64,000 nt of DNA from a virus. The notes beneath the pieces are model-generated. The model ran no database searches. It worked only from the letters and a program-made list of their open reading frames with translations, and had not been told where the DNA came from. A program made the position numbers and the translations under genes. This document shows, one piece after another, positions 3,823 through 62,088 of this stretch. Within the stretch, counting starts at the first letter, position 1, and every line of letters starts with the position of its first letter. Location: the IMG/VR virus record IMGVR_UViG_3300045988_144682; one strand, 5' to 3'.

Positions 3823-4134
3823 ATGTATGATGATATTGTGAAGTATATTCCATATGGTAGAGAGAACGCCATTAGTAGAGATGATTTGGCAATCAAGGTT
3901 GGATGTTCTGACAGAATTATGCGAGATTTAATAAGTAAGGCAAGAAAGAAAACTGTCATCATCAATATTCAGAATGGTAGTGGATATTACAGACCAACAG
4001 AAGATGATATGGAAGATGTATTGAAATACAAGCATCAGGAAGAAAATCGTGCTACAGAGGTGTTTGGCAATCTGCAGCCGGTAAGAGAATTCATCAGGAA
4101 ATATGGTAAGGGTAAGAAAAATGCGAAAGTGTGA
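3823..4134 (+). CDS. Hypothetical protein
   Basis: AAGGAG RBS; 103-aa ORF in the operon. Confidence 0.6.
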   Translation: MYDDIVKYIPYGRENAISRDDLAIKVGCSDRIMRDLISKARKKTVIINIQNGSGYYRPTEDDMEDVLKYKHQEENRATEVFGNLQPVREFIRKYGKGKKNAKV

Positions 4135-4378
4135 TAGCTGTCTTTATGGTGAAAAACTCTACGATGGTACATTGATTTGCCAACACATCGTATCTATGCA
4201 AGGAAAAGAAACCACACAAGACTATGTGATTTGTAATAGGGTTGCTAAGTGTGATTTCTTTTTAGAAACAAATGTTAAATGTAGTGACTGCCAGGGTAGT
4301 TGCTATGCAATTCAAAGAAGACTTAATTGTAAGAAAATGGAGGTTTTGAAGAATGAAAAGAGTATTGATTGTCATTGA
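4103..4378 (+). CDS. Cys-rich hypothetical protein
   Basis: Several CxxC-like pairs; start uncertain (4103 or 4121). Confidence 0.45.
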   Translation: MVRVRKMRKCDSCLYGEKLYDGTLICQHIVSMQGKETTQDYVICNRVAKCDFFLETNVKCSDCQGSCYAIQRRLNCKKMEVLKNEKSIDCH

Positions 4379-4898
4379 TATGCAGGAGGACTTTGTGCGT
4401 GGTTCTCTGGGATCAAAAGATGCAGAAGCCATTGTAAGTAAAGTTAAAGCTAAAATTACCGAATACATGGAGCGTGGCGATAAGATCATCTTCACTAGAG
4501 ATACACACAGAGAAAATTATTTGGAAACACTGGAAGGTAAGAATCTGCCAGTTGAACATTGTATCTATGGCACAGAGGGATGGCGAATTATTCCAGAGCT
4601 AGTTGATGACTGCAAAGAATATCCAGACTGCTCATTTATTGACAAAGTAACATTTGGGTATGAGAACTGGAAAGATATTTTCGGCACTGTAGATGAATAC
4701 GGTATTGAGTTGGTGGGACTTTGCACTGATATTTGTGTAGTGTCAAATGCACTTGCATTACGAATGTTCTACCCGTCCTGGAACATTTCAGTTGATGAAA
4801 GTTGTTGTGCTGGTGTAACTACTAAGAAGCATAAAGCAGCACTTGAAGTCATGAAATCATGCCAGATTGAGGTTACAAACAGCCAGAAAACTAAATAA
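4353..4898 (+). CDS. pncA: Isochorismatase-family hydrolase, nicotinamidase-like
   Basis: VLIVIDMQEDF (Asp), TRDTHRENY (metal D/H), IDKVTF (Lys) and GLCTDICV (Cys) match the PncA-type triad and metal site. Confidence 0.7.
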   Translation: MKRVLIVIDMQEDFVRGSLGSKDAEAIVSKVKAKITEYMERGDKIIFTRDTHRENYLETLEGKNLPVEHCIYGTEGWRIIPELVDDCKEYPDCSFIDKVTFGYENWKDIFGTVDEYGIELVGLCTDICVVSNALALRMFYPSWNISVDESCCAGVTTKKHKAALEVMKSCQIEVTNSQKTK

Positions 4899-4900
4899 AA

Positions 4901-4909
4901 CTATGTTTT
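4901..4909. repeat. Left arm of short inverted repeat (C5-MTase switch)
   Basis: CTATGTTTT is the reverse complement of AAAACATAG at 5068-5076. Confidence 0.5.
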
Positions 4910-5009
4910 TATGTTGTCGGTCAAGTTCTATCGTGAAAGTCTCAAAACCCTTGATTTCAAAGGCTTTTGCGATACTACGTGTACCGCTAAATAAATCTAA
5001 ACACTTCAT
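4902..5009 (-). CDS. Detached, inverted 5' fragment of the C5 cytosine methyltransferase gene (RBS + first 36 codons)
   Basis: GAAAGGAAG RBS about 10 nt before ATG 5009. Encodes MKCLDLFSGTRSIAKAFEIKGFETFTIELDRQHKNI, i.e. SAM-binding motif I (FxGxG-like LFSGTRS). Confidence 0.7.
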
Positions 5010-5033
5010 TATAGTTTTACTTCCTTTCTCAAA

Positions 5034-5603
5034 TTGCGTATATTACGTGATTACAAACGACCAAATCAAAACATAGATTGGTATGCAGATATCATGGAAG
5101 TAACGGCAAAAGACATTATTGAGAGATTCGGTAGACCGGATGTAATCTGGGCAAGTCCACCATGTACAAGTTATTCTATCGCTGCAATATCACATCACAG
5201 AAAGAAGAATGTTGAAACCGGCAGTCTTGATCCTGTAAGTGATTTTGCAAAGCTATCTGATGAGCTTGTAAAACATACATTAGAGCTTATCAAAGAATTA
5301 AAGCCTAAGTATTGGTTCATCGAAAATCCTAGAGGTGGCATGAGAAAAATGGATTTCATGCAAGGATTGCCACGATACACAGTTACATACTGCCAGTATG
5401 GTGATACACGAATGAAACCTACGGACATATGGACTAACCACCCGAATCCTCAATTTAAGCCAATGTGCCATAATGGTGATCCATGTCATGAGAAAGCACC
5501 TAGAGGGAGTAAAACAGGCACACAAGGTTTAAAGGGTGCTGTACAGAGAAGTGTTATACCAGAGGAATTATGCTTGCATATTGCAGATATATGTAGACTG
5601 TAG
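5034..5603 (+). CDS. C5 cytosine DNA methyltransferase, 3' body lacking motif I
   Basis: WASPPCTSYS (motif IV PC), IENPRGG (motif VI ENV-like), YCQYGDTRMKPT. No FxGxG motif and no RBS; the ORF-track start is TTG. Confidence 0.75.
   Translation: MRILRDYKRPNQNIDWYADIMEVTAKDIIERFGRPDVIWASPPCTSYSIAAISHHRKKNVETGSLDPVSDFAKLSDELVKHTLELIKELKPKYWFIENPRGGMRKMDFMQGLPRYTVTYCQYGDTRMKPTDIWTNHPNPQFKPMCHNGDPCHEKAPRGSKTGTQGLKGAVQRSVIPEELCLHIADICRL
5068..5076. repeat. Right arm of short inverted repeat (C5-MTase switch)
   Basis: AAAACATAG; codons N-I-D of the plus-strand ORF. Confidence 0.5.
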
Positions 5604-5606
5604 ATT

Positions 5607-6116
5607 GTGATTGTAAATGGAAACGAGGTAATTGAGATGGACATGTTAGATATTTGTATTAAACAAGGCTATGTACCGCCAGATTGTAAATTAGATGGTG
5701 CAATAGCTTTTATGATTGTCAGAGATGGAAAAAATCCGTGTGATGGATGCCATGCTGACTGCATACATAAAAAATCGTCATATTGTAGAGAAGTTTTTTA
5801 TGATGATAAATCAAAAAGAGTACAGCGTAGAAAGAAATTGGGAACAAATTCAGAACCAACTATTTATGTAGACACGGCACGTAGTGGTACAACAATTACG
5901 GCTATTTTACCAAATTCTGAGATAGGATATATAAGGCATGTAACAGATGGGATTGAATGTACAGCAGATTATATTGAGAATATGTGCATAAAATATGGCG
6001 CAAAACAAGTTATTATTGATACAAGTGGATTTGGAATAGCTGTATGTGATTCGTTGTTTAACAAAAAATTGCCCTGGTTAGATATAGTTCCTGTTCATTG
6101 TATTTCAGATAGATAA
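5607..6116 (+). CDS. Hypothetical protein
   Basis: 169-aa ORF; start ambiguous (5607 GTG or 5637 ATG). Confidence 0.55.
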   Translation: MIVNGNEVIEMDMLDICIKQGYVPPDCKLDGAIAFMIVRDGKNPCDGCHADCIHKKSSYCREVFYDDKSKRVQRRKKLGTNSEPTIYVDTARSGTTITAILPNSEIGYIRHVTDGIECTADYIENMCIKYGAKQVIIDTSGFGIAVCDSLFNKKLPWLDIVPVHCISDR

Positions 6117-6137
6117 ATGTTTACAAAGGAGATTAAA

Positions 6138-6548
6138 ATGAAAGTATTTTTAGGTGGTACATGTGCCGGTTGGAAATGGCGAGATGAGTTGCAGCCATTG
6201 CTTAAATGCGACTATTACAATCCAATTGTGAAGAATTGGAACGAAGAAGACAGACTGAGAGAAGTCCATGAGAGAGAAACTTCTGATTATGTTTTATATG
6301 GTATTACTAACGGAATTAAAGGCGTATATTCAATTGCAGAAGTTGTTGATGATTCAAACAAACGACCAGAGAAAACAATATTCCTTAATTTATATAAAAC
6401 ATATGAGAGAAGTGGAGAATCTAAGCAGATGGCGCATAGCTTAAAAGCCGTTGAAAATATGTTGAAAGCGAATGGAGTTATAGTATTCAGTGGCGAAAAA
6501 GCACTTCTGGAAGTTGCAGATTATTTGAATAAAGCAGTTTCAATATAA
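6138..6548 (+). CDS. Nucleoside 2-deoxyribosyltransferase-like protein
   Basis: AAGGAG RBS; N-terminal KVFLGGTCAGWKWRDE and the later SIAEVV Glu resemble this Rossmann-like family. Weak assignment. Confidence 0.45.
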   Translation: MKVFLGGTCAGWKWRDELQPLLKCDYYNPIVKNWNEEDRLREVHERETSDYVLYGITNGIKGVYSIAEVVDDSNKRPEKTIFLNLYKTYERSGESKQMAHSLKAVENMLKANGVIVFSGEKALLEVADYLNKAVSI

Positions 6549-6563
6549 GGAGAATGATTACAA

Positions 6564-7322
6564 ATGGGAGAATTTGTAAAACCAAAGAGAGTCATCGTTT
6601 CCGATAAAGAATATATTCAAAAACTTGTTAATGCTAATTTGGTAAAAGACTTACATGACAATGAGGAAATCTGCCCTTATTGTCATGGCACTGGTATGGT
6701 GATAAGAGATAACCAGTATGGATTGTCTGATGATCCAGACAGAAAAGTATGGTTTCCATATAAACATCAAGCGATTACTTTTTGTCAACATTGTTTTAAT
6801 GGTGTGATTCTCAGATGTAAATTGTGTGGAGAAGTAATTCAGCGTGGATATACAAAGCATGATTGTAAACAGCAAAGAGCTATAGACGAGAAATTACGAG
6901 AACAGAAAAAGCGAGAAGAATTTGAGAAAGCACCACTTTTACCAAAGAAAAAACAGAAAGATTATGAATATTTCTTTTCAGAAGAATACACACATGATAA
7001 TGGTTATTTTAATGACTGGGAAGAGTTTTTCGATGACTGGGAAAATGAACACGAAGAGTATGGAGATGTTCGCCCGAAATATGTGTGGGTAACTGAGCCA
7101 GTAGAAATGAGTATAAATGCAGAGAGTATTGCAGAACAGGCAACCGAAGATTTATACGAAGATGCATATGATGATATCTCTGATGGAGAAATAAAAAGAT
7201 TACAGGAAATTCTTGACCACTGGGCGAAAACATGTGGTGTAAGCACAACATACTATGAGAGTCATAAATACAAAGTAAGAATACCGTGGGAAGACTACAA
7301 TAAGAGAAAGGGAAAAGAATAA
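6564..7322 (+). CDS. Zinc-finger protein with acidic C-terminal half
   Basis: CPYCHGTG (DnaJ-type CxxCxGxG), CQHC, CKLCG; D/E-rich tail. Confidence 0.6.
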   Translation: MGEFVKPKRVIVSDKEYIQKLVNANLVKDLHDNEEICPYCHGTGMVIRDNQYGLSDDPDRKVWFPYKHQAITFCQHCFNGVILRCKLCGEVIQRGYTKHDCKQQRAIDEKLREQKKREEFEKAPLLPKKKQKDYEYFFSEEYTHDNGYFNDWEEFFDDWENEHEEYGDVRPKYVWVTEPVEMSINAESIAEQATEDLYEDAYDDISDGEIKRLQEILDHWAKTCGVSTTYYESHKYKVRIPWEDYNKRKGKE

Positions 7323-7324
7323 AA

Positions 7325-7528
7325 ATGGGATTTTGTCAGAGATGTGGTGGATATTGCGCCGATAACTATACATATTGTAAGCCGTGTTACATTGCACTTG
7401 GCACACCATATGGCACATCAATTTCAAAGGGGCATCAATGCAGAAAGTGTGGAAGAATAATTTATGGTAGATACAATTATTGCCTAGATTGCGCACGAAA
7501 GAAAGGATTTTTTAAGGAGGACTATTAA
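7325..7528 (+). CDS. Small zinc-ribbon protein
   Basis: CQRCGG...CKPC...CRKCG...CLDC in 67 aa. Confidence 0.55.
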   Translation: MGFCQRCGGYCADNYTYCKPCYIALGTPYGTSISKGHQCRKCGRIIYGRYNYCLDCARKKGFFKEDY

Positions 7529-7536
7529 GCTAGATT

Positions 7537-8103
7537 ATGAGTAATTTTTACATTGCAGATTTGCATTTAGGACATGAAAATGCAATGAGAAGGTTTGACC
7601 ACAGACCTTTTGAATCATTAGAAGAACAGGACAGAGCGATTATCGCAAATATCAATAACAGAGTATCGCCACAGGATAATCTTTATTTGTTGGGTGATGT
7701 GTCATGGTATAAGCCAGATAAGACTGCAGAACTGATTAAACAGATTAAATGTAAGAACCGATATCTGATTGTTGGAAACCATGATAGTTGGATTAAAGAT
7801 GGAAAATGTAAGAAATTGTTTCAGGGAATCTATGATTTAAAAAGAATCAATGATGAAGGAAGAATTGTTGTACTTTGCCACTATCCATTAGCAGTGTGGG
7901 ATCAGTCACATAGAGGCAGCTATCATTTATACGGTCATGTACATAATAATTTGAGTGAAGACGGAAAAACGCCGACACACAATATCTTGCATAATGAAGA
8001 GATGAAGAATGCATATAATGTAGGATGTATGTTGCCATATATGATGTATACACCAAGAACACTTGATTATATTCTGAAGAAAACCGGGAGGACTTCTAAG
8101 TGA
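7537..8103 (+). CDS. Calcineurin-like metallophosphoesterase
   Basis: Motifs ADLHLGH, LGDV, GNHD, HYP, GHVH. Confidence 0.85.
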   Translation: MSNFYIADLHLGHENAMRRFDHRPFESLEEQDRAIIANINNRVSPQDNLYLLGDVSWYKPDKTAELIKQIKCKNRYLIVGNHDSWIKDGKCKKLFQGIYDLKRINDEGRIVVLCHYPLAVWDQSHRGSYHLYGHVHNNLSEDGKTPTHNILHNEEMKNAYNVGCMLPYMMYTPRTLDYILKKTGRTSK

Positions 8104-45605: not shown

Positions 45606-48600
45606 TTACCACTTATATTTATTTTTGGCTAATGTGCTTTTACCAGCAACAACACCAATCGTCATAGCTTGAATCATATCTTCAAACTTTTCATCCTTTT
45701 TTGCACGATTCATAAATTCCTCATAGTTTGTTACATTTGGCAGATTAAATGTAACTTCACCTATGCTGTTATTATTTACACGCATATAAGGTTCAAGACC
45801 AGAAAGAATACCATTATTAAACAAGTTCCCACTAATAAATCCAGACGGATCGCTTGCCATATCCCATATGTTTCGTGTGGCATCGGCGGTAAGCACACTG
45901 TCACCTTTTGCGATATGAGTTACAATAGCGTTCTCAGATGGCTTGACAATAGATTCACTACCAAGCTCATTTACCCACGCATTTTCAGCTTTCGGAGCAT
46001 TTTTCAGACCGACAGCATATTTATTGTAATGATATGGTGAAAGATCACGGATTCCCTGGTATCTACCAACCCACGCACCAGAACGTACATAACCTTCTCT
46101 GCCCATCTGATTTACGATACTTTGAACTCTATTGGCATCAAAACCTTTAGCTTGCAAACGGCTAACTCTGGTATTTCCAGTTCCCCAACCATAGTTACCG
46201 TTCCAAATAGCAAGAGCAACACCATAGTAATCCTTATCGGTTCGTGCCGGTTTTAATGGTGTAGAAGGAGTATTGTTTGACGGTTTTGAAGGTTGACTTG
46301 CTGGTTTACTTGCTTCCGTCTGTTTCTTTGTGGCTTCCGCTTTAGCTTTCGCCTCTGCATCTGCCTTTGCAATCAAAGCATCAGTATAAGCCTTAATACC
46401 AAGAATCGCATTCAATGTAGAAGTATTCTGTGTTAAGAACTGATCGCCATATTTAGAAATAACAGTGAAAGCACCACCATCATTCGTCCAGATAGAATTC
46501 ATGGTTTCTGACAATGTATAGCCAACATTTGCACATTCTTGTTGAATTGTATCGCTAATAGAAGATGAATTTGCATTGATTGAATCAATCATGTCAGATA
46601 AAAAAGCATCAACGTTATCCAATCTTGCATTAAGAGATAACTCATATTCATTATACAAATCATCTAATAATTTTTTCTGGTCTGTGATGTATCTGTCATA
46701 CTCTGTTTCTTGCAATTCTTCCATAGCTTTTGATAAATCAACCTGAATTTTCTGAATTGTAGCTTTAGTTTCCTCTGAATTATCTCCGGCATAAGCTGAT
46801 AACTGTTTCTGCAAAGAAGCAATTTCATCAGATTGTTCTTTTACCTTTTTCTGATAATCATAGAGGTCTTTTGCACTATCCAATGAATCTGTATAAGCAT
46901 CTATCAAATCTTTGAGAGAATCAAGCTGCGCTTCAATTCCGTCTTTTACCAAATCAATCATAGCCTGTTTTTCATCTTCGGCAGCAAGAATAGATTTTCT
47001 CTGTAATTCGAGAAGTTCCTGTCTACGTTCAATGAGGTCAGTGTTATATGGATCTTTAGCAATTTCCGCATTTAACTCTTTGATAGCTTTGGCATATTGG
47101 TCAGCTTGTGCCATATCGACATTGTAATTCTGTCCATGTAATCCCATAGTTGCCATGCCGGTATCTGTCATTTGACCTTTATCATCAAATAACTTTCCAT
47201 TTGCCATTAAGTCAATGAGAAAATCTGCTTCATCGGTAATATTTGATATACGGTCTTCCATATAATCAAAATATTCCCAATCAAGCTCACGCATTGTTTT
47301 CTGATATTCAAGCAGCGAGAGATTAGATTCATCAATTGCCTCTTTGACATCATTGATGCTTTTCTGCATCTCATACCATTGCTCAGAACCCTTTTCGATT
47401 TCACCAGAAGCCATTGCCTGATTGAAAGATTCCGTTAAATCAACTAATTCTTTTTGGAGAATTGCCTGATTTTCTTTTTCAGCTTTTTGGAGAGCTTGAT
47501 AATAAACCTTGCTTCCTTTTAAGCCTTTTGCTTCCAGTGTATCAAGCCCAGTGTTATATGTATCAGTCAAATGTTGTACAAGAGCTAACTGGTTATCAAA
47601 ATCAGTGGAAATGTTACTGAATCTGTCAGCATATAACTGGGCGATTTCTTCATGCAAATCGGCTACAGCGTCTTTTGCTTCAATCGCTTTTTCATAAAAG
47701 TCTTGAAAATCCTTAATCTTATCAGACAAGTCTTCATCAGTAATCGTGGATATATCAATCGTGCCATTCTTTACCTTGTCCATCCAGTCAGATGATAAAC
47801 CGACAGAATTAGCCTGTTGCATATATCTGGTGTATGCTTGATTCTGAGTATTGATTTGCTGAGTGATTAAAGAGATTTCATCGGCAGCAGTACTATTACG
47901 TTTTACCAACGTTTTGAATGCACTTTCTGCTTTTACTTTTACTCTGTCAATCGCTTCACTGATTCGATTTATGGCAATTTCAATCCAGTCAAATGTTTCT
48001 TCAAAATCTTTTTCTGTTGAAGAACTGCTTGAACTAGAACTTGATTTACTAGAAGAAGATGATCTTCCACTAGAACCGCTTGATTTTCCAGAAGACTTAC
48101 TACTTGATTTTCCAGAAGACTTACTACTTGATTTTGATGAAGAACCGCCACTTGTAGAAGGAAACCTCCAACCACTAGCATAAGCAGTACCACCAAGATA
48201 AGAACGTCCCCTAGAGTTAATCTTGCCACTTGATAAAAGTTGGCGTGATTGCTCTGCATCGAATACAATAGAACCTTCTGGAATATGGGCAAATTCAGCA
48301 CCACGATCTCCGACAGTCCACCATTGATTACCATTGACAACAATTTCTTGTCCTTTTTCACCGGTTAAAGCATCTTCAGATACTTTTGTCTTCCAACTGT
48401 CTTTAAGCCAACTTGTATCAAACAATGTTCCAGAAGCTCTTGCCGTACCACCATAACGAGCAGTACCAAGTAATTTACCCTTTCCAGTAGAAGAATATGT
48501 ATCTATATGATGCGTATAGATATACATATTTGAGGTTTTGCCATTTACACCATTCAAAGCAGAAGCAGCACTACTAGCAACAGAAGTTGCATTTTCTGTA

Positions 48601-51341
48601 GCTGTAATATTTGCCTTTGGTGATAATTTCGGTTGCAAAGAATTTAAAGCATTGTCTACAGTCTGGATTTCGCCAGTTGCAGTATCAGTAATGGAAATTT
48701 CACCATTCAAATATGCTTCTTTTTGTTCTGGTGTAAGAGAATTCCAAGTATTGATAACCCATGTTGCTTGATCTTCGGCAGACAATGATGCAAATTTTGG
48801 ATTTGCACTTGCATCATTCCATAACTGAATCAACTGAGTTGCATAATCTTCTGAGTATAAAGCACAAGTTTTAGAAATTAACTCACGTTTATTAACATCC
48901 TCGATTACAGGTGTTGCTTGATCTTCCGCAAGAATATTAAATGTGAGTGTATTATCTTCACCTTGTAAAACCTCTATTTTTTTCTGAACACCATCAATTT
49001 CGGCGGTATAAGTAATCGTACCGTCTTGATTTTTAAGAGCCTTTACTTCATCCTCAATGCCATCGCCATCAACGTCAGCATTAAATGTAATAGAACTTCC
49101 AGAAGCAAGTTGCTCAAGTTGTGATTGAATTTCATCAGTTGAAAGTTCCGCATTAACATGAAGCTCTTGAGGTTTGCTAAAGAAATCTTCCCATGCACTT
49201 TGTACTTCTTCTATAGAACTGTCAGTATTGATTTCTGGGTGAGTTTCAGAAAAAGCATTGAGTATGGATTTTTGTAATTCTTGAGTATTCTGGATTTTCG
49301 CTTGAATCTCAATAAATTTATTACTACCATATTCCTCTTTTGAAAGCTGGTCGTATAAGTCATTGATTGTATTTTCATTGACTTTTATCTTAGCTTGTAC
49401 TTCTGCAGAAACATTATCAACTTGTAAACCTTGTTTGGCAGTAGTGAGATATTTTTGATTGGCAGCCAATACCTCTGCATTCGTATCTGCATTTTTACCA
49501 CCTTGTCCAGATTGTTTTGCTGTCAGTTCATCAATCTGAGCCTGAATAGTAGAAAGGTCATATACAAATTCGATATGTACAATCTGGTCTTCCGTGAGTT
49601 CTGTCATATCATCTTGATATTTTTGATACTCGTCATCCCAGTTTTCAATAAGACTTCCAAGATGTTTTTTAAGCTGTCCGTCTTCCATATCTTTGTAAAC
49701 AGAATGAATTCCATCAAGTGCAGTCTTATATCTGTTTAATCCTTCAGCACTGAATACAACATCGTCAAATTCAGCACCATAAGATTCAAGACTATGCATA
49801 AGAGACTCAGTAGCCTCAACACTAATTCCAAGTTCTTTAGCAGCAGCAGCACTATTCTTGAATTTCTTTGTCCAAGAAAATTCGCCATTATCTTTTGTGG
49901 CAAATCCGCTCTTAACCAAATCATCGGCAAAATTAGTTACACTCTGAAGTGGGTTATCACTATCAAAGTATCGTTTTATTTTCTGCTGTGCTTTCTCCCA
50001 ATATTCAACATAAGCATCAGCATCATATTTATAATCATCTGGATTTATTTTTCCATATGTCATAAATTGGGCAGCAGTTTGGAAATCATCTGTGCCAACT
50101 TTGCCTTTCTTGTAAAGCTCTTGTGCTTTACTCAAAGCATCTGCCATATCAGTCCAATCTTGATCCTTATTTTTAGAATCCATTGCAGCTTTTACGCCAG
50201 CGATAGAACCATCTACACCAATAATTGCTTCTGAAGCTTCATCGGCACTTGCAGCTAAATCATTGAAATACTTCGCAATATCGGAAGCGTCCACACCATC
50301 AATGGCAATTCCCATACGCTTAATATCATCCGCTGTAAGTTCTGCCTGTTTTGCAGCTTCAAGGAGATTATCTTTAATGAAGTTTTTGCCGGTACTTCCA
50401 TCAAAGAAAGAATTGATTTTATTTAATTTCTTCTCTGCTTCTGATAAATCAACATTATTGTAAGCATCAAATAAATCATTTATACGATTTACAGTGTCTT
50501 CATATCCTGGAAGTACACTACCGTCTGTAGAGAAAAGAGAAGAGTAGTTTGAGTTAATTGTCTCAACATCTTCACTAACTTCTTTTTCCAAGTCACTAAC
50601 ATCTGATTTGAGATTTTTAAGCTGCTTTGTCTTCTGCTCATACTCAGTATCAGCTTGCCAGAAATGCTTATGATATTCCGGCTCCATGTTAGCAATTTCT
50701 TCTTCAAGTTTTACTTGCTCTGCTTTCTTCTCATTAAGTTTTTCTTGTTTAGATGTAGCACGATCAATGATATCACCAGACATATATTCCATGATTGGCA
50801 TACCATTGGTATCAGTCATCATATATCCATTTTTATCTTTAAGGAAATCGCCAGTTTGCCATGTTAAATCTTTCGTCAAAACATGGTTCGCATCTTCGGC
50901 AGCTACACCTTGTTGATAATTAGCAAGTTTCTGTTTGATTGCTAACTGTCTTTCAAGCTGGTCGTTTTCAGCCTGTAACTTTTGTAATTCAGCCTCTTCG
51001 GTTATGGTAAGAGAATCCATAGAGTTTAACTCATTGATTCTGTCCTTTACCTCTGAAAGCCGAGACTCTAAAGATTCTACTTCACTTGCTGTCTGTTCAT
51101 AAGCACTACGAGACTTATCGGCTTTTTCTACGGCTTCATCAAATGATTCTGTGACAAGATCGACTATGGCAACAACAGCAACGATGCCAGCAGCAATAGC
51201 AAGAAAGCCACCTAAAGCAGCAGTAGATATACCTATCGCACTAGCAAGACCTTCAAAACCTAATGATGCTGCAGCAGCAACATCACCTAAAGAAGTTAAG
51301 CCACCAGCAGCGGACATAGCACCAATAAGATCTTTTATCGC
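45606..51341 (-). CDS. Tape measure protein, downstream part (proposed exon 2)
   Basis: Gly/Ala hydrophobic segment, long coiled coils, Ser/Lys tract, Cpl-7-like repeat. No RBS or start. The ORF-track extension 51342-51488 is antisense to another gene. Confidence 0.7.
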   Translation of the reverse strand, partial: AIKDLIGAMSAAGGLTSLGDVAAAASLGFEGLASAIGISTAALGGFLAIAAGIVAVVAIVDLVTESFDEAVEKADKSRSAYEQTASEVESLESRLSEVKDRINELNSMDSLTITEEAELQKLQAENDQLERQLAIKQKLANYQQGVAAEDANHVLTKDLTWQTGDFLKDKNGYMMTDTNGMPIMEYMSGDIIDRATSKQEKLNEKKAEQVKLEEEIANMEPEYHKHFWQADTEYEQKTKQLKNLKSDVSDLEKEVSEDVETINSNYSSLFSTDGSVLPGYEDTVNRINDLFDAYNNVDLSEAEKKLNKINSFFDGSTGKNFIKDNLLEAAKQAELTADDIKRMGIAIDGVDASDIAKYFNDLAASADEASEAIIGVDGSIAGVKAAMDSKNKDQDWTDMADALSKAQELYKKGKVGTDDFQTAAQFMTYGKINPDDYKYDADAYVEYWEKAQQKIKRYFDSDNPLQSVTNFADDLVKSGFATKDNGEFSWTKKFKNSAAAAKELGISVEATESLMHSLESYGAEFDDVVFSAEGLNRYKTALDGIHSVYKDMEDGQLKKHLGSLIENWDDEYQKYQDDMTELTEDQIVHIEFVYDLSTIQAQIDELTAKQSGQGGKNADTNAEVLAANQKYLTTAKQGLQVDNVSAEVQAKIKVNENTINDLYDQLSKEEYGSNKFIEIQAKIQNTQELQKSILNAFSETHPEINTDSSIEEVQSAWEDFFSKPQELHVNAELSTDEIQSQLEQLASGSSITFNADVDGDGIEDEVKALKNQDGTITYTAEIDGVQKKIEVLQGEDNTLTFNILAEDQATPVIEDVNKRELISKTCALYSEDYATQLIQLWNDASANPKFASLSAEDQATWVINTWNSLTPEQKEAYLNGEISITDTATGEIQTVDNALNSLQPKLSPKANITATENATSVASSAASALNGVNGKTSNMYIYTHHIDTYSSTGKGKLLGTARYGGTARASGTLFDTSWLKDSWKTKVSEDALTGEKGQEIVVNGNQWWTVGDRGAEFAHIPEGSIVFDAEQSRQLLSSGKINSRGRSYLGGTAYASGWRFPSTSGGSSSKSSSKSSGKSSSKSSGKSSGSSGRSSSSSKSSSSSSSSSTEKDFEETFDWIEIAINRISEAIDRVKVKAESAFKTLVKRNSTAADEISLITQQINTQNQAYTRYMQQANSVGLSSDWMDKVKNGTIDISTITDEDLSDKIKDFQDFYEKAIEAKDAVADLHEEIAQLYADRFSNISTDFDNQLALVQHLTDTYNTGLDTLEAKGLKGSKVYYQALQKAEKENQAILQKELVDLTESFNQAMASGEIEKGSEQWYEMQKSINDVKEAIDESNLSLLEYQKTMRELDWEYFDYMEDRISNITDEADFLIDLMANGKLFDDKGQMTDTGMATMGLHGQNYNVDMAQADQYAKAIKELNAEIAKDPYNTDLIERRQELLELQRKSILAAEDEKQAMIDLVKDGIEAQLDSLKDLIDAYTDSLDSAKDLYDYQKKVKEQSDEIASLQKQLSAYAGDNSEETKATIQKIQVDLSKAMEELQETEYDRYITDQKKLLDDLYNEYELSLNARLDNVDAFLSDMIDSINANSSSISDTIQQECANVGYTLSETMNSIWTNDGGAFTVISKYGDQFLTQNTSTLNAILGIKAYTDALIAKADAEAKAKAEATKKQTEASKPASQPSKPSNNTPSTPLKPARTDKDYYGVALAIWNGNYGWGTGNTRVSRLQAKGFDANRVQSIVNQMGREGYVRSGAWVGRYQGIRDLSPYHYNKYAVGLKNAPKAENAWVNELGSESIVKPSENAIVTHIAKGDSVLTADATRNIWDMASDPSGFISGNLFNNGILSGLEPYMRVNNNSIGEVTFNLPNVTNYEEFMNRAKKDEKFEDMIQAMTIGVVAGKSTLAKNKYKW

Positions 51342-51347
51342 CAATAA

Positions 51348-51375
51348 TAATCTTGCAAATAATAATAGTAATAAA
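51348..51375. repeat. 28-bp inverted repeat, left arm
   Basis: TAATCTTGCAAATAATAATAGTAATAAA; 26/28 complementary to 51961-51988. Confidence 0.85.
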
Positions 51376-51385
51376 CAGATTTTTG

Positions 51386-51394
51386 TGATATAAT
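51386..51394 (+). promoter_or_regulatory. Extended -10 promoter element (TGaTATAAT) for the antisense ORF
   Basis: Same TGa-TAnAAT form as the promoters at 8361 and 14302; about 30 nt before the RBS AAGGAG (51415-51420). Confidence 0.4.
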
Positions 51395-51426
51395 TATAAA
51401 TAATATCAAACAATAAGGAGAAAAAT

Positions 51427-51960
51427 ATGGCACTTATTAAATGTCCTGAGTGCGGAAAAGAAATTTCCGACAAATCAAAACATTGCATTCATTGTGGATA
51501 TCCACTTGATGAATTAAAAATAAATAATACCAACCAACTCTACAAAATTGTATTAACAGATCATGGCAAAAACAAAGTTCAAACAATTGCCAAAATCCGT
51601 GAATTTACCGGCATGGGATTAGCCGAAGCAAAGAAATTTTCTGAATCTTTACCACAAGTAATTCAATCTGGTATCAACATGGATGAATGTAATTTGATAC
51701 AGTCACACTTTTTATCAGTCGGTGCAACCGTAGAAATTCAGCCAGATAATGAATCTGTTTCAAAAAACACAGTTTTAGAGAATAAACCAATAGCAAAAGC
51801 TATAGTTAAAGACAAAAATGTAATTACTTGTCCGAAATGTGGATCTACTGCTATCGTAACCACAAATAGAGGATTCTCTATAATGACTGGATTTATTGGC
51901 TCTGGCAGTCCACGTAATGTATGTCAAAATTGTGGATTCAAATGGAAACCAAGAGCATAA
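51427..51960 (+). CDS. Zinc-ribbon / ribosomal L7/L12 C-terminal-domain-like / zinc-ribbon protein
   Basis: CPECG...CIHCG; AKIREFTGMGLAEAKKFSESLP resembles the L7/L12 CTD; CPKCG...CQNCG. It is the only convincing plus-strand gene in the late arm. Confidence 0.75.
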   Translation: MALIKCPECGKEISDKSKHCIHCGYPLDELKINNTNQLYKIVLTDHGKNKVQTIAKIREFTGMGLAEAKKFSESLPQVIQSGINMDECNLIQSHFLSVGATVEIQPDNESVSKNTVLENKPIAKAIVKDKNVITCPKCGSTAIVTTNRGFSIMTGFIGSGSPRNVCQNCGFKWKPRA

Positions 51961-51988
51961 ATTATTACCATTATTATTTGCAAGATTA
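51961..51988. repeat. 28-bp inverted repeat, right arm
   Basis: ATTATTACCATTATTATTTGCAAGATTA, starting right after the stop of the 51427 ORF. Confidence 0.85.
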
Positions 51989-52363
51989 GATATGCTACTT
52001 CGTGTATTGGACTACAATGACAGTTTGGTTACTGACGAGCATATCAACATGACTATGATATAATCATGTTTTATCCGACTGTCTATCACACTTGCCTATG
52101 GCAAGCGAACTCCCTTACAGTCTGTGAACCTTCCCGTTTATCACAAATTCCAACGTGATACAAACCTATAAAATAGGAGAGGGGATTGGATGCTGACTAT
52201 CCATTGTCCTATACAGTATACTTAGCATTATTTTTTAGCATATATACATTTTGACGTATAGTGTAAATTCAAACTTTTTTCTGCATTTCTGCGACTATCA
52301 CGCCTATCCGTTAGGATTACGTTGTAGCGTTGAATTGTTAGGATTTCCCAGCAGTTTGAAAGT

Positions 52364-54541
52364 TTATGCATCTATGGACTCGCACCCATAGAGGGCAAAT
52401 TCTTTACCAAAATTTTTAATTAGTGCTACGATTCCAACACCAGCACCTATTGTTCCCAAAGTACCAATGTGGTCGATTACTGTAGTAATTGCTTCCGCAA
52501 TTTCTGTCAGACCAGAAACTACGCCTTTTACGAAACCAGAATCTAAGAAAGAATTTGAAAGTCCTTCCCATGCAGCTTTGAGCTGATTTACTCTTGCTTC
52601 GATAGAATCCATGTATTTTTCGTGTTCTTGCATTGCAGAACCTTCAGAATTCATGGATACATCAAGGGCTTGTCTTGCAATATCAAAGTTCTCCATAAGA
52701 GATGCCATTACATTACCTTGATGTTTTCCGGCAAGCAATTCAGTAATACTTGCCTGTTGAATATCCGTTAAGTCTTTCCATTTCTGAGATAACTCGTCCA
52801 TGATTTGATATGTAGACTTAAAGGTATTTTTATCAAGCATAATATCTACACCTGATAATGCTTTTATTTCTGCTTGAAGTTTAGCGGTAGATTCTGCCAT
52901 ACCATCTGTTTCTAAACCAGCTTCTTCAAGCTCAGTTGTTGCGCCACGTATACGCATTGAGATCGTCTTAAACGCATTACCGACTCTTGGAGCATCCTGA
53001 ACTACTGTATTAGCAGCAGTAATTAACGCTATGGTTTCATCAAGAGTATTATTTGCAGCAGCCATTGAAGATGCGGATCTTGTTAAGGCATCACCAATAC
53101 CGCCGGAACTGATAGCAAATCTGTTACCTACTTCATTGAATTTATCAACAATAGAAATAGCATCATTGGCTTGTATACCGAATGCTTGCATTGTTGAAAT
53201 TACACTGGAACTTGCTTCATCAATGCCAGAAATTTCGTCACCAACAACACTATAGATATTGGCAACTTCTGAAAGCTGTGTAGCGTCAGCCATTGAGTAA
53301 CCAAGTCGTGCAAAGTTAGCTGTTGAATTTACATAGTCGGTAATAGTCGTGCCAAGTTCTACAGAACGCTTTGAAGCATTTGTAAGAAAGCTAGAATAAG
53401 CGGAGTCCGTTTCATCTGTAACTTTCTTCAATTCTGTCATGGCACTATCAATATTTACTACATTTGAATACATATCTTTCAATCCACGAATGGCGGTGTT
53501 AATCATAGCCCCCATACCAAACAAAGGACTAAGACTTGTCATATTGTCTTTTAATGTAGCAAATACGCCCTTGCCGAGACTTCCAGACGCAGCAGCAGTA
53601 GTTTTTAATTCTGTAAATTGTCTATTTACATCTTTAAGTGCGCTACCAGTAGTGGCATTAGCCAAAGCTGTTTGTATATCTTTCAGTTCATTCTTGTACT
53701 TTCTAGCAGCTATCGTATTTTTGTTCATCCAGGTTTCAATTTGATTACCCAAAACTGTTCTCTGAGATAACAATTGCTGTGATGCTGCAAGAGAATCATT
53801 TTCTGCCTTTGCTTCTTTATAAGCAAGTTTAAGTTTTCCAACTTCTTGTGTTATTCTGTCAAATTCAGCTTGTTGTTTATCTAGTCCAGATATATTACCA
53901 ATACCAGCTAATTCAGATTTTAATTTTGACAGTTCTGCAGAATAACTATTTGTATCACCTTTCAGCTTTACAAACCCAGCATTAAGTGATGCAATATCGG
54001 AGTTTAATTTTGACACATCCGCACCAGTAAACATCTGCCTAAAAGATTCACGTACTCTGGAAGACGTATTTATCAAATCACCAGTTTGTGCGCTGAATGA
54101 TTGCATAGCTGTTACTGCACGACCTAAATCATCCACACCAGTTACAGTAACATTTAAGCGATCACCGTTTAATTCGTGACTTATGCCAGTTACAGTAACT
54201 TTTAAATTATCCAATTCCTTTGTAATATTGGATATGGAACTTTTATTAAAACCAAAATTCTGCAATGAATTTTGTAGATTTTTTATTTCTGTTTTCGTTC
54301 TACTTAAATCAATACTGTTTAAAGACGCATTAGCATTTCTGGCGAAATTATTGCCAGCAACATTACCAGCCTGACCAAATTGTGATTTTATCTGATTCAA
54401 ATAGCCGTTTATATTTCCATTTTTGGACACCAAATTTACATCAACATCAATTTTGTGCTTTGCATTTGTGAAAGCATTCATTTGTTGCTGTGCCTTGGCG
54501 GTATCAAGCTCCGCTATAACGTGAGCAATAAAATCTGACAT
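52364..54541 (-). CDS. Tape measure protein, upstream part (proposed exon 1; stop lies in the intron)
   Basis: TP901-type TMP core (ELKKVTDETDSAYSSFL...ANFARLGYS...); strong RBS GGGGAGG. Confidence 0.85.
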   Translation of the reverse strand: MSDFIAHVIAELDTAKAQQQMNAFTNAKHKIDVDVNLVSKNGNINGYLNQIKSQFGQAGNVAGNNFARNANASLNSIDLSRTKTEIKNLQNSLQNFGFNKSSISNITKELDNLKVTVTGISHELNGDRLNVTVTGVDDLGRAVTAMQSFSAQTGDLINTSSRVRESFRQMFTGADVSKLNSDIASLNAGFVKLKGDTNSYSAELSKLKSELAGIGNISGLDKQQAEFDRITQEVGKLKLAYKEAKAENDSLAASQQLLSQRTVLGNQIETWMNKNTIAARKYKNELKDIQTALANATTGSALKDVNRQFTELKTTAAASGSLGKGVFATLKDNMTSLSPLFGMGAMINTAIRGLKDMYSNVVNIDSAMTELKKVTDETDSAYSSFLTNASKRSVELGTTITDYVNSTANFARLGYSMADATQLSEVANIYSVVGDEISGIDEASSSVISTMQAFGIQANDAISIVDKFNEVGNRFAISSGGIGDALTRSASSMAAANNTLDETIALITAANTVVQDAPRVGNAFKTISMRIRGATTELEEAGLETDGMAESTAKLQAEIKALSGVDIMLDKNTFKSTYQIMDELSQKWKDLTDIQQASITELLAGKHQGNVMASLMENFDIARQALDVSMNSEGSAMQEHEKYMDSIEARVNQLKAAWEGLSNSFLDSGFVKGVVSGLTEIAEAITTVIDHIGTLGTIGAGVGIVALIKNFGKEFALYGCESIDA

Positions 54542-54555
54542 AACTTCACCTCCCC

Positions 54556-54984
54556 TTATCTAAAGAAACTACTAAATGTACTGTCTAAGTCAGATTGAAT
54601 TTTCTGTTCTGATCTTGCCCAGAAACCAGAACGACCTTTGATATTTGCTGTACCAGCTTCGGCAGCATCAAATACCATAGGGGTTGAAAAATAACTTGAA
54701 AATCCTTTTTCTATAAAGTCTGGATTTGGAACTACATAACTGTAAGTTCTATCCAACCAAATATAGAAATGAACATTTTTTCCGTATTTAGAAACACCAT
54801 AGTTCCTAACACTTTTTCCAAGTTTTCCAGTTCTTTTATAAATACTAGGAGAACCCTGCGAATAGAAAGACTGGACTTCGTTCTCTGTATCTTTGAGAGA
54901 TTTTGAATGTACAACCGTCATGGCTTTTTGCATCTCATTCAAGATCAACTGTTCAAGTTCTGCCATGCTATTTGCTTTTTTCAT
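54556..54984 (-). CDS. Tail-associated hypothetical protein
   Basis: AAAGGAGG RBS; immediately upstream of the TMP. Confidence 0.55.
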   Translation of the reverse strand: MKKANSMAELEQLILNEMQKAMTVVHSKSLKDTENEVQSFYSQGSPSIYKRTGKLGKSVRNYGVSKYGKNVHFYIWLDRTYSYVVPNPDFIEKGFSSYFSTPMVFDAAEAGTANIKGRSGFWARSEQKIQSDLDSTFSSFFR

Positions 54985-55010: not shown

Positions 55011-56045
55011 TTATAGATCACTTAAAGACGAACTCTTACCTTCCACAATTCCATCTTTTGTGAAATACTTACTGAATTCTTCGGAAACCTCACTATCGTT
55101 GTAGAGATTAACCATGTCCGAACTACTCCATCCGAAAAATTCCTGAACAACATTTGCCGGGATATTCAGCTTCAATAATTTTGTGTTGAGATAATGTCTC
55201 ATGCAGTGCCAGTAAAAATCCACACCTAATTCATTTGAGAAGATGTTCGCCCAACTATCAAGAGTACTGACTTTCATTTGTGCATAAGAACCATCACCAC
55301 ATCTATGTACAAAAAGCCATTCGCTCTCAATGCCTTGTTTCTTACGTTGTTCCATCCATAAATCAAGGTATTTCTTAAACTCATAAAGCACATATTTATT
55401 GAGCTGTTTACCTGTTTTACCAGCTCCCTTAGTTTTGATCTTAGGAGTCTTATATAAACCACCATAAACAATATTGTTCTCATCGAAGTATTCAACTTTG
55501 AATCTCAACAATTCTGATTTTCTAGCACCACTCATTGCAGCCAAAGCAAAAGCACATGCCTGTTGGTATCGTTCTTCACTAACCAATTTATCTAAGAATT
55601 TATCTACGTCATCATCTGGGATAATGGTTTTCTCACGAACAGCTTCGTTCTTCGGGGATTCAATCTTTCCAATAATGGATCGGAAATTCTCAAAATCTTC
55701 GTCTTCGTCCTGTAAAATATTTTCAATATAATTTGACATGCTACTGATAGCAGATTTTACCCTACGAATTCTTTTCGGACTCCAACCCCATTCATTGATT
55801 GCATATCCCTGGAATCGTGCAAGCTCACGTTTCTTGATATCAACAAAAAATTTATTGTTGTTGTACTCTAAGTTCCAGCAGAAGAAAATTTCTAGGTCGT
55901 TTCTGTACCCGTTAATTGTAGAAGGGGCACGATCAATAGACGCAAGATATTCAAGAAAATCTTCACAAAGTTGTTTATTGTTTGGATTGATTTTCTTGAT
56001 AGATTCTTCGTTTGTAATTTTGTTATAAATTGTTGTTCTACCCAT
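55011..56045 (-). CDS. Tyrosine recombinase (phage integrase family)
   Basis: N-terminal SAM-like core-binding domain; SGARKSEL (Arg), HCMRHY (HxxR), NLYND (Tyr). Confidence 0.85.
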   Translation of the reverse strand: MGRTTIYNKITNEESIKKINPNNKQLCEDFLEYLASIDRAPSTINGYRNDLEIFFCWNLEYNNNKFFVDIKKRELARFQGYAINEWGWSPKRIRRVKSAISSMSNYIENILQDEDEDFENFRSIIGKIESPKNEAVREKTIIPDDDVDKFLDKLVSEERYQQACAFALAAMSGARKSELLRFKVEYFDENNIVYGGLYKTPKIKTKGAGKTGKQLNKYVLYEFKKYLDLWMEQRKKQGIESEWLFVHRCGDGSYAQMKVSTLDSWANIFSNELGVDFYWHCMRHYLNTKLLKLNIPANVVQEFFGWSSSDMVNLYNDSEVSEEFSKYFTKDGIVEGKSSSLSDL

Positions 56046-62011: not shown

Positions 62012-62088
62012 TGATGTATAACTCCTTTTATAATAAAAGCATGGAGAAAAACAGATTTCCCCATGCTTATACATTTATTTTCGTTTAA

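Follow-up and report, generated by a model that had tools for sequence, protein, structure and literature searches.

A probable group I intron with opposite-strand cargo in the tape measure protein gene of a large SPbeta-like phage of gut Clostridia

We analyzed a 64,000-nucleotide stretch of viral DNA (IMG/VR record IMGVR_UViG_3300045988_144682), hereafter the window, in which the tape measure protein (TMP) gene is interrupted on the minus strand. The virus is a large SPbeta-like phage of gut Clostridia, and the insertion is in all likelihood a genuine 1064-nt group I intron, very probably splicing-competent. The reading is supported by a full-length, sub-threshold covariance match, covariation in all variable core helices, and uninterrupted TMP homologues, which together uphold the central claim of a preliminary description of this DNA, namely that a group I ribozyme interrupts the gene. 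The insertion also carries an open reading frame (ORF) on the opposite strand, here called the passenger ORF. Coordinates of the features are collected in Table 1.

The exon-1 ORF, including read-through, extended from 54541 to 52364 on the minus strand (725 aa), ended at the UAA at 52366-52364, and matched Pfam PhageMin_Tail (E = 1.5e-23). The frame reopened at GCG 51341, upstream of which neither an ATG nor a Shine-Dalgarno sequence was found, bearing out the earlier observation that the TMP frame stops at 52364 and resumes around 51341 without a ribosome binding site (RBS) or start. The sole start-like codon before exon 2 was an in-frame TTG (51344-51342), also without a Shine-Dalgarno sequence, and the exon-2 “starts” assigned by gene callers in relatives were TTG, GTG or ATG codons, all lacking an RBS. 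Exon 2 encoded a Pfam CW_7 repeat near the C-terminus and a long Ser/Lys low-complexity tract (...SSSKSSSKSSGKSSSKSSGKSSGSSGRSSSSSKSSSSSSSSS..., within 45606-51341, minus strand). An unspliced message would give a 725-aa product only, ending ...KEFALYGCESIDA (a tail including EFALYGCESIDA), whereas the spliced TMP would comprise 712 + 1911 = 2623 residues.

Protein searches showed that close relatives of exon 1 all end at K-N-[FLV]-[GSD] with varied short tails, and the split was present in every P0049 place retrieved. Among more distant IMG/VR relatives (<=70% identity), 71 of 80 were continuous across the site for at least 0.6 kb, most of them as far as the retrieved DNA (2.5-3 kb) extended, and most GTDB genome relatives were also continuous. 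Examples of continuous sequences were ...LKKFIGAKGLGG... and ...LFKNVGIFSSL..., and the gene was likewise uninterrupted here in Enterocloster phage CB473P1, Brevibacillus phage Sundance, and P0020. Since most related TMPs are continuous, the break is best read as a derived insertion in a normally continuous gene.

Three intron sequence types were found at this one TMP site: type A (the window, L005, and L013-15), type B (L008 and relatives), and type C (L010 and L216). In each type, exon 1 ended on a U paired to a G, the intron ended in UG, the exons shared a frame, and exon 2 lacked an RBS; in types B and C, the stop codon was the first intron triplet. Within type A, the L005 intron was 64-72% identical to that of the window, the aligned part of TMP exon 2 was ~38% identical, and the 15 exon bases before the site were identical. 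When the region was searched against the phage collection at the nucleotide level, only a 52-nt exon match in Enterocloster phages was returned.

The Rfam model RF00028 (Intron_gpI) aligned from end to end (model positions 1-253) with minus-strand positions 52415..52055 and scored 35.9 bits, corresponding to E = 4.7e-7 in a 1.8-kb search and 1.7e-5 in the whole 64-kb window. It also matched the homologous insertion in the distant phage L005. The default Rfam scan at the gathering threshold was empty for the whole window. Running the group I model on the minus strand had been suggested as a check in the preliminary description, and its outcome is a significant full-length match that stays under the gathering threshold. 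When the ORF loop was swapped for a tetraloop, the folding energy was -144.5 kcal/mol (z = -6.6 against 100 shuffles), and the predicted fold (minimum-energy or centroid) recovered P2, P5a/b, P6a, P6b, P7, P8, P9, P9.1, and the long terminal stem.

Every helix of the ordered core P3-P4-P5-P6-P7-P3'-P8-P7', with P3 and P7 crossing, was located. The R-like, S-like, P3, P4, P8, P9, and P9.1 elements picked out earlier were all present, as was the AAA of J3/4. P7, presumed to be the guanosine-binding helix, was invariant and matched the Rfam consensus around UCAcAGACU ... AGUC, bulged A included. P2 was kept in L005, L013, L014, and L015, and the seven pairs of P3 were 100% kept. The 27-bp stem encloses a 587-nt ORF loop and sets the 3' splice site within 6 nt of the folded core. 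In L015 this stem was 28 bp long with a compensatory C-G to U-A change, and in L005 a 16-bp stem of unlike sequence occupied the same place.

The motif ACAACGUARU-N12-GCGUGA in the P5 extension was found in at least 120 IMG/VR stretches (L094-L213), nearly all in a group-I-like context with P4-P6-type flanks; contigs L112 and L197 held two copies each. Many of these phage introns have insertions or hairpins at the P7.1/P7.2 position, which the window intron lacks. Judged by this motif, the ribozyme is a member of a populous phage class.

Table 1. Positions of the TMP exons, the predicted intron with its helices, and the passenger ORF in the window.
Feature	Position	Strand	Remarks
TMP exon 1	52406..54541	-	712 codons; ends ...ALIKNFG; last codon GGU 52408-52406
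TMP exon 2	45606..51341	-	1911 codons + stop; begins AIKDLIGAMSAAGG...
Group I intron (predicted)	51342..52405	-	1064 nt; 5' splice site after U52406; last base omega-G 51342
In-frame UAA	52364..52366	-	would end translation of unspliced message 13 codons into intron; overlaps P3 start
P1	52394..52408	-	hairpin GGUAAA-GAA-UUUGCC, 6 bp; U52406-G52396 wobble at cleavage site; read from sequence
P2	52371..52392 (52392-86 with 52377-71)	-	hairpin UCUAUGG-GUGCGAG-CCAUAGA; between P1 and P3; Rfam places P2 here
P3	52108..52364	-	AACUUUC 52364-58 with GGGAGUU 52114-08; long-range, crosses P7
P4 and P5	52191..52353	-	P4 UGCUGG 52353-48 with UCAGCA 52196-91; P5 52344-41 with 52202-199
P5 extension, P5a	52336-30 with 52272-66	-	
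P5 extension, motif	52325-52298	-	ACAACGUAAU-N12-GCGUGA; once in window, 0.06 expected
P5 extension, GAAA-capped hairpin	52292-83	-	A-rich stretch next to it
P5 extension, P5c	52264-56 with 52221-13	-	
P6, P6a, P6b	52132..52185	-	P6 52185-82 with 52135-32; P6a 52177-65; P6b 52160-55 with 52144-39
P7	52076..52124	-	C(A)GACUG 52124-18 with CAGUCG 52081-76; from R-like UCACAGACUG and S-like GACAGUCGG
P8	52107-52089	-	CGCUUGCC/GGCAAGUG; between P7 strands; kept
P9	52070-64 with 52052-46	-	AACAUGA/UCAUGUU
P9.1	52045-38 with 51996-89	-	GAUAUGCU/AGCAUAUC
P9.1a	52036-19	-	
ORF-closing stem	51348..51988 (51988-62 with 51374-48)	-	27 bp; repeat search: 27 nt, 96% complementary
Passenger ORF	51427..51960	+	177 aa; N-terminal Zn-ribbon, bL12 C-terminal domain (residues ~39-105), C-terminal Zn-ribbon
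Putative expression signals	51386..51420	+	extended -10 TGATATAAT 51386-94; RBS AAGGAG 51415-20, 6 nt before ATG 51427; found by eye

Covariation was counted after the full-length type A copies (window, L014, L015, and L005) had been aligned with plain MAFFT; these four sequences stem from just two or so independent lineages. An alignment spanning all three types, also made with MAFFT, was left out of the counts because its 3' half was misaligned. The window structure comprised 107 pairs, and 95.7% of 419 cells were paired over the four copies. Two-sided compensatory changes occurred at 19 of the 107 pairs, compared with 0-2 in six controls in which the partners were slid by 1-3 columns; shuffles gave a mean of 5.3, and none of 500 reached 19. 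The compensatory pairs were distributed over P3 (two, both in L005), P5 (one), P5a (four), P5b (one), the GAAA-capped hairpin (one), P5c (one), P6a (one), P6b (three), P8 (one), P9.1 (one), and P9.1a (three), with the four in the P9-P9.1a region (51989..52070) falling in helices recovered by the energy fold. P4 and P7 never varied in this alignment. In types B and C, where the group I assignment is based on helices read by eye, P3 covaried (AAGAA/UUCUU versus AAGGG/CCCUU), as did P4 (UACUGG/UCAGUA versus UGCUGG/UCAGCA) and P8. At the level of the type A alignment, the 19 compensatory changes show selection for the RNA fold.

On the 3' side, the introns of the window, L005, L006, L007, L008, L010, and L216 ended in UG at the very point from which the sequence again matches continuous TMPs, and G51342 was therefore taken as the terminal guanosine (omega-G). 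The preliminary description had also put the 3' border after G 51342, which stands; it had left the splice sites unresolved for want of a U-G pair, and that pair is the wobble U52406-G52396. Cleavage after U52406 falls on a codon boundary. The GGU/GCC part of P1 was invariant in all type A copies, with a longer hairpin loop in L005. In types B and C, the last exon base was a U whose partner is a G in an internal guide, the pairings being UAAGU/GCUUA (L008), AUUGCU/GGCGGU (L010), and UAUCU/GGAUA (L216), and within type C the guide pairing covaried at aligned positions between L010 and L216. The L013 intron (83% identical) had a 1-nt deletion directly after GGUAAA, giving the tail KLLPSMGVNP before its stop in place of KEFALYGCESIDA; the read-through tail past GGUAAA is therefore not coding, assuming that the L013 3' site keeps the frame. 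In a profile of 41 uninterrupted TMPs, NFG-AIK scored best of five joins (68.6 bits), ahead of the join proposed earlier (64.9 bits) and three others (63.9-66.7 bits), which gives it weak backing. The predicted ligated junction is ...ALIKNFG-AIKDLIG..., with AAAAAUUUUGGU joined to GCGAUAAAAGAU and ATTAAAAATTTTGGT to GCGATAAAAGATCTTATT in nucleotides. An alternative P1 pairing AAAUUU with GAAUUU (splice after UUU or UUUU) was dropped because L013 lacks the GAAUUU strand; one of its registers would also leave a frame that no nearby terminal G can complete.

The expected splicing pathway follows established group I chemistry, to which our analysis contributes the anatomy and its conservation. The late transcript would fold so that P1 presents U52406-G52396, and a free guanosine held in P7 would attack after U52406. 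The 27-bp stem would loop out the 587-nt ORF region and place G51342 in the guanosine site, whereupon the exon-1 3'-OH, once free, would attack after G51342. The ligated message would encode a single 2623-aa TMP carrying the junction given above.

Several points weigh against this reading. The RF00028 score of 35.9 bits is lower than the curated gathering score of 50, the large P5 insertion (170 nt) and the far-off P1 both lowering it, and E-value scans with Rfam found no group I match in the sister types B and C (L008 and L010). Such scans were also without a group I match for L002, L004, L006, and L007. The exon side of P1 has only three pairs (GGU/GCC), without variation in type A; the placement of the 5' site therefore relies on the L013 indel, the analogy with types B and C, and a 2-4 bit difference in the profile. 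A P10 pairing with the first exon-2 bases is poor in the window and has three pairs in L005. Because the intron is present in all relatives above 70% identity, no naturally empty site fixes the junction, and a search for an intron-less allele with the predicted junction (degenerate IKNFG-AIKDLIG) returned none in IMG/VR and none in JGI metagenomes, a null that is uninformative. Splicing itself, like transcription of the passenger ORF, is deduced from the sequence.

The passenger ORF and the 27-bp inverted repeat around it (51348-74 and 51962-88) went unmentioned in the preliminary description. The encoded protein matched Pfam Ribosomal_L12 (E = 2.4e-17) and Zn_Ribbon_1 (E = 2.7e-9) as well as phrog_2546 (function unknown), and its C-terminal Zn-ribbon followed the motif CPxCGS..RGFS..GFIGS..CxxCGxKWKP. 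An AlphaFold model (pLDDT 81) matched in Foldseek the bL12 C-terminal domain (CTD) only (rmsd ~0.9 A), then ClpS. The bL12 part covered the CTD alone, with Pfam positions 2-67 of 67 at residues 40-105, and TIGR00855 scored 53.3 bits against a cut-off of 84.4 over profile positions 59-124 only. Judged from this coverage, the protein is not a full-length bL12, as the N-terminal uL10-binding/dimerisation domain and the hinge are missing. No nuclease signature was found with Pfam, PHROGs, NCBIfam, a PDB sequence profile, or Foldseek; none of LAGLIDADG, GIY-YIG, HNH, His-Cys, and PD-(D/E)xK matched, only zinc ribbons and the bL12 CTD. A homing endonuclease was accordingly rejected on domain and fold searches. 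A scan for consensus promoters (requiring a -35 hexamer) and terminators near the ORF gave nothing above shuffled expectation.

Every intron type had an antisense ORF of the same family at 50-150 nt from exon 2, and the family had 2825 homologues. A gene 93% identical in nucleotides (window 51426-51950 versus L222-L224 4000-4524) stood beside a resolvase and a helix-turn-helix repressor in bacterial contigs, with homology stopping at the ends of the coding sequence, and phage phiC2 carried a free-standing homologue just upstream of its TMP. Given these free-standing copies, the family is not tied to introns. In L015 (ORF 4469-5005), the same zinc-ribbon ends flanked an unrelated middle domain, while the surrounding intron was 96% identical. 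This looks like an exchange of passenger cassettes through recombination in the conserved termini. From these comparisons, the passenger belongs to a large phage/Clostridia family with an exchangeable middle domain, and we read it as probable accessory cargo in a dispensable P9 loop, neither a splicing nor a mobility factor.

We tentatively propose, as a possibility well short of likely, that, in phages of gut Clostridia, the intron at the TMP site has turned into a lasting docking place for accessory genes whose transcription opposes that of the late operon. The proposal draws on the Zn-ribbon ORF (with a bL12 CTD in most variants) being kept antisense by the 3' splice site in three types, on the middle domain being swapped between near-identical introns, and on the loop having grown to 2.5-3.6 kb with several genes in some phages. 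In L216-L219 (~3950-7540), the same TMP site held an insertion of this size with a type C core at its 5' end, then several genes lying on both strands (DUF2513, a proteasome-family protein, and small ORFs), and the bL12/Zn-ribbon ORF still antisense, 53 nt from exon 2. If it splices, it would be an unusually gene-rich bacterial group I intron.

Other explanations were weighed against a functional intron with the borders of Table 1. A decayed ribozyme, with the TMP made as two polypeptides of 725 aa and ~1911 aa (the latter from TTG 51344), is unlikely. It would suit the split in every relative above 70% identity, given that a two-piece TMP, if workable, would serve the whole clade; gene callers do assign the second piece a start at TTG, GTG, or ATG, the Rfam match stays under its threshold, and related TMPs are also cut at other positions. 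However, the compensatory changes point to selection on the RNA fold, and a relic should lose the exact U...G borders and the common frame, both of which three diverged types retain. Exon 2 was not preceded by a Shine-Dalgarno sequence in any of six variants, the genome being of Firmicute type with AAGGAG at the neighbouring ORF, and the “start” was always an NUG exactly where homology to continuous TMPs resumes. That an AT-rich intergenic spacer between two tail genes resembles a group I core by chance is hardly credible: E = 1.7e-5 at window scale, covariation far above controls, the fold z of -6.6, and a hallmark P5 motif common to at least 120 phage introns all contradict it, set against an empty default Rfam scan.

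A working intron with the borders first proposed, spliced after UAU 52388 to give ...KEFALY-AIKDLIG... (GCCCTCTAT joined to GCGATAAAAG), is very improbable, and the border was placed at 52405 instead. At 52388 the cleavage-site U would pair with A, not G; the U-G is found in another hairpin, 18 nt further upstream. In L013 this stretch is frame-shifted, L005 has a 6-nt insertion upstream of it, and the join scores 3.7 bits under NFG-AIK. The in-frame join and a perfect 7-bp hairpin conserved in relatives do favour it, but that hairpin (UCUAUGG/CCAUAGA, the former P1 candidate) has no U-G and is aligned by Rfam as P2. It is also quite improbable that the passenger protein is an intron mobility or splicing factor, that is, a new homing endonuclease or maturase in an actively homing intron. 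Lateral transfer would fit the greater identity of the L005 intron than of exon 2 and the 15 identical exon bases, and the same-family ORF is antisense at 50-90 nt from exon 2 in all three types, including phages with TMPs only ~38% identical. Against this, the protein has neither a nuclease motif nor a nuclease fold, the bL12 CTD being its sole fold match; its middle domain is replaced in L015 inside a 96%-identical intron, and close or free-standing homologues occur by a resolvase outside any TMP and in phiC2.

In the Michel-Westhof classification, subgroups IA1 and IA2, the usual phage type, have P7.1/P7.2 between P7 and P3'. Only UAA 52117-52115 lies there in the window intron. The td intron of phage T4 and other IA2 introns are self-splicing introns in phage protein-coding genes. 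Like td, the window intron has a very short exon part of P1 (GGGU/GCCU in td, GGU/GCC here), an early in-frame stop, and an ORF looped out of a peripheral helix. However, td carries a same-strand GIY-YIG homing endonuclease gene, whereas the cargo here is on the opposite strand and non-nuclease, and the peripheral domains differ. The IStrons of Clostridioides difficile combine a group I ribozyme with a 3' part carrying an IS200/IS605-type transposase, and are similar in being Clostridia ribozymes with non-endonuclease 3' cargo that must splice from a coding gene. Unlike them, the window intron has no transposase by Pfam, and it keeps to a single TMP site.

The presence of group I introns in TMP genes has been on record since 2008, with TMP-IVS1, -IVS2, and -IVS3 described at three sites in Bacillus cereus-group prophages (Tourasse and Kolsto 2008, PMC2504315), so the preliminary statement that TMP introns are uncommon was overstated. 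As presented in the section of that paper dealing with them, these introns resemble that of the window in breaking a Firmicute (pro)phage TMP gene, in that different introns occupy one TMP site and related introns different sites, in that at least one (TMP-IVS3b) lacks a complete homing endonuclease gene, and in targeting conserved stretches of the host gene. They are classed there as IA1/IA2, whereas the window intron has a large P5 extension and lies in another TMP at another site, and the relevant section does not mention an opposite-strand ORF. Antisense endonuclease genes are described for nuclear ribosomal DNA (rDNA) group I introns of Didymium (Johansen et al. 2006, as covered in PMC3073962; also PMC9223047). 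In these accounts, the protein gene likewise lies opposite the ribozyme strand and is expressed independently of the host transcript; they concern eukaryotic rDNA and a His-Cys box endonuclease, in contrast to a phage protein gene, a bacterial-type promoter and RBS by sequence, and a bL12 CTD. Phage bL12-domain proteins occur in varied architectures, and some homologues keep the flanks without bL12 (Mizuno et al. 2019, PMC6375957). This domain swapping with kept flanks parallels the window and L015, whereas the cultivated-phage examples in that study are from phages of Proteobacteria, outside introns, and zinc-ribbon flanks are not described, the paper nowhere using the word “zinc”. In a limited literature search, which is not proof of absence, antisense ORFs in group I introns appeared only in nuclear rDNA introns, as endonucleases, and no phage intron with an opposite-strand non-nuclease gene and its own promoter-like signals was found. 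Our claim to novelty is modest: an intron in the TMP gene is already known, and the conserved yet exchangeable opposite-strand cargo is the unusual part.

Other interruptions were seen in related TMP genes. In Enterocloster phage CB457P1 (L002, OP172753.1, 4400-5568), the TMP is split elsewhere, at about exon-1 residue 609, by a ~1.17-kb insertion with a 157-aa ORF that has a weak HNH-endonuclease PHROG match. Rfam gave no match there, the pieces are three hypothetical proteins in GenBank, and the gene of its sister phage CB473P1 is intact; the insertion is probably another unannotated intron. In a human-faecal phage scaffold (L004, MT837120.1), TMP homology is lost from ~5064 at the same K-N-x-G site (...ITQLGEPK), followed by more than 2.5 kb of unrelated ORFs with no exon 2 on the contig and no group I signal, which could be a different insertion or a chimeric assembly. 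TMP relatives in GTDB Clostridia genomes or metagenome-assembled genomes (L238, L239, L242, L244, and L245) stop early at other positions near or before the site. TMP interruptions may be frequent in this phage supergroup. The tail module of the window also contains a tyrosine recombinase (55011-56045, minus strand; Pfam Phage_integrase E = 1.8e-17 and a SAM-like N-domain), an odd location for an integrase, two genes upstream of the TMP with 54556-54984 (minus strand) between them; the layout recurs in L005, L008, L010, and Brevibacillus phage Sundance. Outside this region, Rfam ctRNA_pND324, a plasmid copy-control antisense RNA, gave a sub-threshold match at 62026-62077 on the minus strand (37.5 bits against a gathering score of 45; E = 0.051 in the window).

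In annotation terms, what pipelines call here as two “hypothetical proteins” and a “ribosomal protein L7/L12” would become one 2623-aa TMP gene and an intron passenger. The same mis-annotation is present in hundreds of public contigs, with P0049 alone indexed in 119 collection blocks. The Rfam threshold misses this intron class, for which the P5 motif could be used as an inexpensive detector. Tail length is set by that of the TMP, and tail assembly presumably needs correct splicing; given that presumed need, this would be an intron in an essential gene of an abundant gut phage group. Non-nuclease antisense cargo with an exchangeable middle departs from the standard picture of phage intron ORFs, and the passenger offers a tractable case for the role of bL12-domain phage proteins and for intron loops as safe insertion sites. 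If the docking-place proposal is true and the ORF is expressed, for example in early infection or in the prophage, its transcript would be complementary to the TMP pre-mRNA and could couple accessory-gene expression to the timing of TMP splicing, and the passenger protein could be a decoy drawing off factors that bind at the bL12 stalk of the ribosome.

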